From NCBI RefSeq assembly GCF_988242995.1, contig NZ_OZ547043.1: 64,000 bases of DNA, one strand, 5' to 3'. Positions 46,864-50,483 of this stretch are shown one piece after another. Numbering within the stretch: the stretch's first letter is position 1; each line of letters opens with the position of its first letter. The position numbers and the translations under genes are program-made. The notes beneath the pieces are model-generated. The model ran no database searches, was not told the DNA's origin, and saw only the letters and a list, made by a program, of their open reading frames with translations.

Positions 46864-47559
46864 ATGTCCATTGCGGTAACCACCACCGATCCGACAAATA
46901 CCGGCGTCAGCACCACCAGTAGTAGTTCGCTCACGGGCAGCAACGCCGCAGATTTACAAAGCAGTTTTCTGACTTTGTTGGTGGCGCAGCTGAAAAACCA
47001 GGACCCGACCAATCCAATGGAAAATAACGAGCTGACGTCGCAACTGGCACAAATCAGCACGGTCAGCGGGATTGAAAAACTCAATACCACGCTCGGATCT
47101 ATTTCCGGACAGATTGATAACAGCCAGTCGTTACAGGCCAGTAACCTGATCGGTCACGGCGTGATGATCCCCGGCACCACTGTTCTTGCGGGAACCGGCA
47201 GTGAAGAAGGGGCTGTAACCACGACCACGCCGTTTGGTGTTGAGCTGCAACAGGCGGCAGACAAAGTTACGGCCACCATCACCGATAAAAACGGTGCGGT
47301 TGTCCGTACCATTGATATCGGTGAACTGACTGCCGGAGTCCACAGTTTCACCTGGGACGGTACGTTGACTGACGGCAGCACTGCGCCGAACGGTTCTTAC
47401 AATGTAGCGATTAGCGCCAGTAACGGTGGTACACAACTGGTTGCCCAGCCGCTGCAGTTTGCTCTGGTGCAGGGTGTGATCCGCGGCAACAACGGTAATA
47501 CGCTGGATCTCGGCACTTACGGCACCACCACCCTCGACGAAGTACGGCAGATAATTTAA
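46864..47559 (+). CDS. flgD: FlgD hook capping protein
   Basis: 231 aa. Confidence 0.95.
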   Translation: MSIAVTTTDPTNTGVSTTSSSSLTGSNAADLQSSFLTLLVAQLKNQDPTNPMENNELTSQLAQISTVSGIEKLNTTLGSISGQIDNSQSLQASNLIGHGVMIPGTTVLAGTGSEEGAVTTTTPFGVELQQAADKVTATITDKNGAVVRTIDIGELTAGVHSFTWDGTLTDGSTAPNGSYNVAISASNGGTQLVAQPLQFALVQGVIRGNNGNTLDLGTYGTTTLDEVRQII

Positions 47560-47583
47560 GCCTTCACATTTCAGGAGTCAGTC

Positions 47584-48789
47584 ATGGCCTTTTCTCAAGC
47601 GGTTAGCGGATTAAACGCTGCCGCCACCAACCTCGATGTTATTGGCAACAATATCGCCAACTCCGCCACCTACGGCTTTAAATCAGGCACGGCCTCTTTT
47701 GCCGATATGTTTGCCGGTTCGAAAGTGGGACTGGGGGTAAAAGTTGCCGGTATCACTCAGGACTTTACCGATGGCACGACCACCAACACCGGGCGAGGTC
47801 TGGACGTTGCTATCAGCCAGAACGGTTTTTTCCGTCTGGTAGACAGCAACGGTTCGGTGTTCTACAGCCGTAACGGACAATTTAAGCTGGATGAAAACCG
47901 TAACCTGGTGAATATGCAAGGTTTACAGCTGACGGGTTACCCGGCAACCGGTACGCCGCCGACTATTCAGCAAGGGGCGAATCCGACCAATATTTCGATC
48001 CCGAATACCCTGATGGCAGCGAAAACTACCACCACGGCATCGATGCAGATCAACCTGAATTCCAGTGATCCGCTTCCCTCTGTTAACGCATTTGATGCCA
48101 GCAATGCGGATAGCTATAACAAAAAAGGTTCGGTGACTGTTTTCGATAGTCAGGGTAATGCTCATGACATGAGCGTCTACTTTGTGAAGACCGGGGATAA
48201 TAACTGGCAGGTCTACACCCAGGATAGTAGTGATCCAAACAGCATTGCGAAGACAGCGACAACACTGGTGTTTAATGCCAATGGCGTTCTGACCTCAGAG
48301 CCAACAGCGAATATTTCCACCGGCGCAATTAACGGCGCAGATCCCGCCACGTTTAGCCTGAGTTTCCTCAACTCCATGCAGCAAAATACCGGTGCTAACA
48401 ACATTGTGGCAACCACCCAGAACGGCTACAAACCGGGCGATCTGGTGAGTTATCAAATCAATGATGACGGTACGGTTGTCGGCAACTATTCCAACGAACA
48501 AACCCAACTGCTGGGGCAGATTGTACTGGCGAACTTTGCCAACAACGAAGGTCTGGCATCCGAAGGCGACAACGTCTGGTCTGCGACGCAATCTTCTGGC
48601 GTGGCGCTGTTGGGGACAGCCGGGACGGGCAACTTTGGCACCCTGACCAACGGTGCGCTGGAAGCGTCCAACGTCGATCTCAGTAAAGAACTGGTCAATA
48701 TGATCGTTGCCCAGCGTAACTATCAGTCTAACGCCCAGACCATCAAAACCCAGGACCAGATCCTCAACACGCTGGTTAACTTACGCTAA
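47584..48789 (+). CDS. flgE: FlgE hook protein
   Basis: 401 aa; one residue shorter than the 402 aa I recall for K-12. Confidence 0.95.
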   Translation: MAFSQAVSGLNAAATNLDVIGNNIANSATYGFKSGTASFADMFAGSKVGLGVKVAGITQDFTDGTTTNTGRGLDVAISQNGFFRLVDSNGSVFYSRNGQFKLDENRNLVNMQGLQLTGYPATGTPPTIQQGANPTNISIPNTLMAAKTTTTASMQINLNSSDPLPSVNAFDASNADSYNKKGSVTVFDSQGNAHDMSVYFVKTGDNNWQVYTQDSSDPNSIAKTATTLVFNANGVLTSEPTANISTGAINGADPATFSLSFLNSMQQNTGANNIVATTQNGYKPGDLVSYQINDDGTVVGNYSNEQTQLLGQIVLANFANNEGLASEGDNVWSATQSSGVALLGTAGTGNFGTLTNGALEASNVDLSKELVNMIVAQRNYQSNAQTIKTQDQILNTLVNLR

Positions 48790-48808: not shown

Positions 48809-49564
48809 ATGGATCACGCAATTTATACCGCGATGGGAGCAGCCAGCCAGACGCTGAATCAACAGGCGGTAACTGCCAGTAATCTGGCCAATGCCTCAAC
48901 GCCCGGTTTTCGCGCGCAGTTAAATGCCTTGCGCGCAGTGCCGGTGGAAGGGCTTTCACTGCCTACGCGCACGCTGGTAACGGCGTCAACGCCGGGTGCA
49001 GACATGACGCCCGGCAAGATGGATTACACCTCGCGCCCGCTGGACGTTGCGTTGCAGCAGGATGGCTGGCTGGCCGTGCAGACCGCTGACGGTAGCGAAG
49101 GGTATACGCGTAATGGCAGCATTCAGGTTGATCCCACCGGGCAACTGACAATTCAGGGACATCCGGTGATAGGCGAGGCTGGGCCAATTGCTGTGCCGGA
49201 AGGGGCGGAAATCACTATTGCTGCCGATGGCACAATCTCGGCGCTGAATCCGGGCGATCCGGCAAATACGGTTGCGCCAGTGGGGCGTCTGAAACTGGTG
49301 AAAGCCACGGGCAGCGAAGTGCAGCGCGGTGACGACGGCATTTTTCGTTTAAGCGCAGAAAGCCAGGCCACGCGTGGGCCTGTACTGCAGGCAGAGCCAA
49401 CCTTGCGTGTGATGTCGGGTGTTCTGGAAGGCAGTAACGTCAATGCCGTTGCGGCAATGAGCGACATGATTGCCAGCGCGCGGCGTTTTGAAATGCAGAT
49501 GAAGGTGATCAGCAGCGTCGATGATAACGCAGGCCGTGCCAACCAACTGCTGTCGATGAGTTAA
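48809..49564 (+). CDS. flgF: FlgF proximal rod protein
   Basis: 251 aa. Confidence 0.95.
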   Translation: MDHAIYTAMGAASQTLNQQAVTASNLANASTPGFRAQLNALRAVPVEGLSLPTRTLVTASTPGADMTPGKMDYTSRPLDVALQQDGWLAVQTADGSEGYTRNGSIQVDPTGQLTIQGHPVIGEAGPIAVPEGAEITIAADGTISALNPGDPANTVAPVGRLKLVKATGSEVQRGDDGIFRLSAESQATRGPVLQAEPTLRVMSGVLEGSNVNAVAAMSDMIASARRFEMQMKVISSVDDNAGRANQLLSMS

Positions 49565-49607
49565 TTAATCGATTGATGACATTGCAATAAAAGCGCGCGG
49601 ACTGTTC

Positions 49608-49642
49608 CCTCGCCCCTTTGGGGAGAGGTTAGGGTGAGGGGA
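49608..49642. repeat. GC-rich palindromic intergenic repeat in flgF-flgG spacer
   Basis: CCCTCGCCCCTTTGGGGAGAGGTTAGGGTGAGGGG; resembles a recurrent E. coli intergenic repeat class (family name not verified). Confidence 0.4.
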
Positions 49643-49682
49643 AATGCGCACCGCCGCGTGCTTCTGCTCTGCTTGTCACTAA

Positions 49683-50483
<801 letters not shown>

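Follow-up and report, generated by a model that had tools for sequence, protein, structure and literature searches.

The flgE gene on contig NZ_OZ547043.1 (NCBI RefSeq assembly GCF_988242995.1) encodes a flagellar hook protein that is one residue shorter than that of Escherichia coli K-12. This raises the question of whether the missing codon is an error, a lesion, or ordinary variation between strains, and of where in the hook protein it falls. We examined a stretch of 64,000 nucleotides from this contig, referred to here as the window, in which positions are counted from the first letter. The gene and the signal immediately upstream of it are located as follows.

47584 to 48789, plus strand: coding sequence of the hook protein gene flgE, 401 codons followed by a stop codon (from the open reading frame list and the sequence)
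47573 to 47577, plus strand: putative ribosome-binding site AGGAG, 6 nt 5' of the ATG (read from the sequence)

The reading frame is intact, running from an ATG start to a TAA stop over 401 aa. The identity of the product is clear: the protein scores 546.6 bits against the NCBIfam FlgE equivalog NF004238.1 (cut-off 400) over aa 1-401, and contains, in order, the PF00460 rod motif (aa 6-33), PF22692 corresponding to domain D1 (aa 76-145), PF07559 (FlgE_D2, aa 157-282) and the PF06429 C-terminal FlgEFG motif (aa 356-400), with all four Pfam matches exceeding their gathering scores. Furthermore, the protein is colinear over its full length (aa 1-401) with Salmonella FlgE (6jzt, aa 1-403; E = 3.2e-223). 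The reading frames upstream of the gene encode FlgB, FlgC and FlgD and those downstream FlgF and FlgG, placing the gene in the order flgD-flgE-flgF within a flgBCDEFGHIJKL cluster, in a region that is colinear with the annotated K-12 and ST2747 loci. Over the 24 kb from 36000 to 60000, the best matching complete E. coli genome is also ST2747 (NZ_CP007392.1), and gene order from dinI to rne is fully colinear with it. No complete genome exceeds 99.2% identity across this interval, so that the RefSeq complete genomes include no close representative of the source strain.

An earlier note on this DNA had claimed that flgE is one codon shorter here than in K-12, had considered the difference most likely to lie in the surface-exposed variable domain of the hook protein, and had proposed pairwise alignment with K-12 FlgE as the check. 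The K-12 length that it gave is right, as flgE of K-12 MG1655 (b1076; contig NZ_CM151407.1, protein WP_000885873.1) is annotated at 1209 nt and 402 aa. When the alignment was performed the two proteins were 97% identical and differed in length by exactly one in-frame gap of 3 nt, present in both the protein and the DNA alignments.

48307 to 48312, plus strand: site of the length difference, GCG AAT in the window with one extra AAT (Asn) in K-12 (columns 727-729 of the DNA alignment, and codon table)

The gap falls between codons 242 (GCG, 48307-48309) and 243 (AAT, 48310-48312) of the window gene. At this point K-12 reads GCG AAT AAT ATC and the window GCG AAT ATT (48307-48315), and the AAT AAT repeat of K-12 allows the gap to be assigned to either copy of the AAT. 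The remaining amino acid differences between the two proteins are confined to two patches. The first, at aa 166-171, reads SVNAFD in the window and TVTPFS in K-12, a difference of four substitutions. The second, at aa 229-253, reads V..VLTSEPTA-NIS..D in the window and E..TLVDGAMANNIA..E in K-12, and contains 13 substitutions in addition to the missing Asn. Both patches lie within the outermost domain of the hook.

48019 to 48432, plus strand: region encoding domain D2 (aa 146-283), mapped by alignment from Salmonella Ala145-Lys284 (PMC5873038) and overlapping PF07559 at aa 157-282

The Salmonella limits are numbered without Met1 (PMC5873038), and alternative limits of Ser147-Gly282 have been given (PMC6769732). 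The hook's outermost layer is built from domain D2 (PMC6874566, PMC6769732), and as the indel and every amino acid difference from K-12 fall within it, the placement proposed in the earlier note held. Exposure of the variable stretches is read here from these published domain assignments rather than from coordinates. Had the one-codon difference arisen from faulty sequencing or assembly of the window, or from a wrong K-12 length, neither the annotated 402 aa of MG1655 nor the independent occurrence of the shorter protein would be expected. The exact 401-aa protein of the window is recorded as E. coli FlgE on 89 independent contigs, nothing that favors an error came to light, and we give an artefact practically no credence. 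In many complete genomes, flgE alleles of 1206 nt carry a full-length annotation.

Given that the difference is real, we asked which of the two lengths is common and which came first. The 5,426 complete E. coli genomes were queried with a 95-nt patch of the window type and, reciprocally, with a 98-nt patch of the K-12 type. The window-type patch was matched in 3,892 genomes, 81 of which are low-identity (60-80%) gapped matches to K-12-type alleles, leaving approximately 3,811. The K-12-type patch was matched at 95% identity or above in 1,602. This split of roughly 70/30 comes from a complete-genome collection that over-represents laboratory and clinical lineages, and is not an unbiased population frequency. 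In a spread sample of full-gene matches, 27 alleles were 1206 nt long and 12 were 1209 nt. The collection also contains five flgE matches on plasmid-labelled records, and in NZ_OZ392478.1 the gene is split into two places, the better of which covers 55%, suggesting an interrupted gene.

The 90%-identity cluster to which the window protein belongs includes the FlgE proteins of Escherichia albertii and Escherichia sp. 93.0816, each 401 aa in length. At the indel loop itself, the extra residue is absent from E. albertii, Escherichia sp. 93.0816 and Salmonella (LESGGTV-NITTG), that is, from all three outgroups examined, and the K-12 form is therefore read as derived. On these sequences the shorter form is both the majority and the ancestral length in E. 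coli, and the 402 aa of K-12 is a derived one-codon insertion carried by a minority. The earlier note was thus correct that the lengths differ, but its direction has to be reversed, as the outgroups and the majority length indicate that the window lost no codon and that K-12 gained one. Its further suggestion, that the difference represents strain variation and not loss of function, was borne out by the intact reading frame, the FlgE equivalog score and the share of complete genomes in the same length class. Viewed against K-12 alone the window gene does appear shortened, as it would after a recent, private deletion of one codon in its lineage. However, such a deletion would not be found in some 3,811 complete genomes and in every outgroup examined at the loop, and it would be an isolated event, whereas the indel sits in a 25-codon block that differs from K-12 at 27 of approximately 97 nucleotides. 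We consider a private deletion exceedingly improbable.

Whether a change in D2 affects the hook depends on what the domain does. D2-D2 interactions determine hook supercoiling, which is stabilized by a 6-start array of D2 domains (PMC5873038, PMC6874566), and so changes in D2 could in principle matter, including to the extent that the shorter allele impairs the hook and leaves the strain partly non-motile. To locate the relevant residues we used the 24 6-start D2-D2 contact residues published by Kato et al. (PMC6874566), all of which match their published residue type at the Salmonella positions to which they map, providing a control for the mapping. We compared these across 11 alleles chosen for diversity, consisting of the window, K-12, E. 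coli CFSAN061771 and eight others that span the identity classes of the second patch. No variation was found at any of the 24 contact residues among the 11 sampled alleles. The indel loop (aa 235-245) is itself flanked by the conserved contact stretches A232-N233 and N250-A252. A low-confidence structure prediction of the window protein, made from a shallow alignment of 10 sequences (mean pLDDT 41.6, with 54-83 in the D2 part; pTM 0.34), gives a weak hint that predicted β-strands flank aa 215-222 and aa 231-240.

Impairment of the hook by the shorter allele sits poorly with these observations. The reading frame is unbroken, none of the published D2-D2 contact residues is altered, alleles of this class form the majority in E. 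coli and include that of the motile O157:H7, and the flgBCDEFGHIJKL cluster of the window is colinear with intact annotated clusters. We therefore regard impairment as very improbable, and infer from the conserved core and contact residues that the window FlgE would polymerize into a working universal-joint hook. By the same reasoning from sequence, both length forms presumably assemble working hooks.

The distribution of differences along the gene indicates how the two forms came to differ so sharply over so short a distance. The 100-nt bin that contains the indel has 27 substitutions and the gap relative to K-12, against a background of approximately 1-2 per 100 nt in the flg region. Among the 11 alleles there are 28 variable protein positions, 27 of which lie in aa 163-253 and hence within D2 (hypergeometric P = 1.5e-12, a value that is descriptive only, given that the sample was picked for diversity). 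Alignment of the alleles resolves the variation into three segments, designated A, B and C.

48070 to 48102, plus strand: segment A (aa 163-173; published hypervariable region HVR1), DPLPSVNAFDA in the window and DPLPTVTPFSA in K-12
48208 to 48264, plus strand: segment B (aa 209-227; first part of published HVR2), K-12-like NSIAKTATT in the window and TGTAEPAMK-like in O157:H7 and others
48268 to 48342, plus strand: segment C (aa 229-253; second part of published HVR2), containing the length difference and the 13 amino acid differences from K-12

No site in the protein varies more than codon 239 in segment C (48298-48300, GAG encoding Glu in the window), at which the 11 alleles have E, D, N or G. 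The segments are combined differently from allele to allele. With 0 for K-12 or K-12-like versions, B1 for the version of O157:H7 and C1 for the 401-aa type, the window has the arrangement A1-B0-C1, K-12 A0-B0-C0, O157:H7 A1-B1-C1 and 19KM1831 A0'-B1-C1. All four pairings of A and B segments are present in the 11-allele sample. Consistent with this, the four-gamete test was failed by 663 of 2145 informative site pairs, and in a PHI-style permutation of site order none of 5000 permutations reached the observed low incompatibility between neighboring sites. Together, these two results indicate intragenic recombination in flgE.

E. coli FlgE has in fact been presented as a representative case of 'typical mosaic evolution' in a screen of E. 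coli surface proteins (Cao et al. 2025, PMC12175518). Data Set S1 of that study gives two types for HVR1 at 161-173 (DPLPTVTPFSA, that of K-12, and DPLPSVNAFDA) and 10 types for HVR2 at 211-264, that of K-12 containing ...TLVDGAMANNIATG... This catalogue designates the HVR1 string of the window HVR1_1_0 and takes K-12 as the reference, HVR1_0/HVR2_0. The HVR2 string of the window had no match in the accessible portion of the HVR2 list. The catalogued HVR2 is divided here into segments B and C, which combine differently among the 11 alleles. Two features of the mosaic pattern described by Cao et al., a conserved backbone with short hypervariable regions and intragenic recombination, are both present in the flgE alleles compared here. 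The polymorphism that underlies the length difference is therefore one that has already been catalogued (PMC12175518), and the difference is ordinary strain variation.

Divergence from K-12 is also raised outside flgE. Two further bins, 47283-47382 in flgD and 48880-48979 in flgF, show 8 and 9 differences, respectively, against the background of approximately 1-2; the accessible part of the supplement to PMC12175518 has an FlgF2 sheet among its mosaic families. In addition, the spacer between flgF and flgG (49565-49700, 136 nt in the window) cannot be aligned to the 171-nt spacer of K-12. The K-12 spacer contains a REP-like palindrome, GCCGGATAAGGCGTTTACGCCGCATCCGGC, whereas the window and CFSAN061771 have a different, G-rich element, CTCGCCCCTTTGGGGAGAGGTTAGGGTGAGGGG, and it looks as though one intergenic repeat element has been replaced by another.

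We estimated synonymous (dS) and non-synonymous (dN) divergence pairwise by the Nei-Gojobori method. Between the window and K-12, segment C gave a dS of 1.29 and a dN of 0.29 (dN/dS approximately 0.22), and segment A a dS of 0.58 and a dN of 0.27. For the same pair, dS was 0-0.01 and dN 0 in D0, Dc and D1, and dS was 0.10 and dN 0 in D2 outside the patches. Segment B, which differs between the window and O157, gave a dS of 1.65 and a dN of 0.20 (dN/dS approximately 0.12). Classic positive selection was considered as a source of the patch divergence but not adopted, as dS in the patches is raised even more than dN, and dN/dS between the major types is below 1. Because silent-site divergence is raised as well, exchange of old, divergent segments is favored over a recent burst of adaptive change. 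Within the 401-aa class, segment C differs between the window and O157, and between the window and AR_0104, by five non-synonymous and no synonymous changes, an outcome that has a probability of approximately 0.22 under neutrality (S 19.7, N 55.3) and is not significant.

Taken together, we consider it very probable that the window flgE is an ordinary functional allele in which D2 types have been shuffled by recombination, with the length difference carried by the stretch at aa 229-253. Under the mechanism that we propose, the core domains D0, Dc and D1 and the D2-D2 contacts would be held under strong purifying selection as the builders of the tube and of the 6-start D2 array. The three short hypervariable stretches of D2 would exist as a limited set of old and highly divergent sequence types; lying outside the contacts, they could tolerate substitutions and a change in length of one residue. 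Homologous recombination within the gene would then move stretch types between strain backgrounds, and the extra Asn of the K-12-type stretch probably arose by tandem duplication of AAT.

What drives the variability is a separate matter. The variable loops probably face outward, where they may be met by phages or antibodies, and would not be needed for subunit packing, so that their variability could be either tolerated or favored. It is possible, if doubtful, that the D2 stretches and the indel are selectively neutral, with relaxed constraint on loops that do not take part in packing, redistribution by recombination, and no pressure from phages or the immune system. The low dN/dS values of segments C and B, neither of which exceeds 1, fit neutrality, as does the finding that Salmonella from which the whole of D2 has been deleted still forms hooks, albeit straight ones (PMC5873038), indicating that the domain tolerates change. 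In contrast, dS values of approximately 1.3-1.6 in the patches, compared with 0-0.1 outside them, imply segment types far older than the surrounding gene. Drift within a single recombining species explains such values poorly, but long-term maintenance or import from other species would account for them. That all five differences in segment C within the 401-aa class are non-synonymous adds a hint against neutrality and no more. Neutrality contests only the driver proposed here, not the description of the alleles.

More speculatively, the D2 segment types, including the K-12 loop with its extra Asn, could be polymorphisms that predate E. coli, which it has in common with other Escherichia species or acquired from them, and that are kept by frequency-dependent selection from flagellotropic phages or host antibodies, and loop length might also tune the D2-array packing that sets supercoiling; taken as a whole, we think this unlikely. 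An antigenic cause of the length difference in FlgE, which the earlier note had also raised, is plausible.

Comparison with known hook proteins places the window allele among its relatives. K-12 FlgE shares its gene, operon position and domain order, and is identical to it in D0, Dc and D1; the window protein is one Asn shorter at aa 242/243, and this and all 4 + 13 substitutions between them are in D2. The closest allele in a complete genome is WP_000885855.1 of E. coli strains CFSAN061771, N3 and ST2747, which has the same length of 401 aa, the same three D2 segment types and 99.6% DNA identity. The only amino acid difference between the two proteins is D239 in WP_000885855.1 in place of E239 in the window. 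Salmonella enterica FlgE, the fold and domains of which have been solved (PDB 6jzt, 3a69, 1wlg, 6k3i; 403 aa with Met1), is 88% identical to the window protein, with near-identity in the core and the D2-D2 contacts and with the differences concentrated in D2. Its two additional residues follow window aa 224, and at the site of the K-12 insertion neither Salmonella nor the window has an extra residue. In Campylobacter jejuni, where hypervariability of FlgE has long been known, the exposed central region of the protein differs from strain to strain and is a hot spot for recombination, according to the account of Luneberg et al. 1998 given in PMC4866539, which attributed the variation to immune pressure. 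The C. jejuni protein is much larger than E. coli FlgE, with extra domains and far more extensive variability.

These comparisons indicate that K-12 is atypical of E. coli in the length of its FlgE, and there is no cause to mark an flgE of 401 aa as truncated or unusual. The combination of a conserved hook core with recombining D2 loops that avoid the packing contacts is of modest interest for the evolution of surface antigens, for hook epitopes and for hook-binding phages, as an instance of a pattern that has already been described (PMC12175518).
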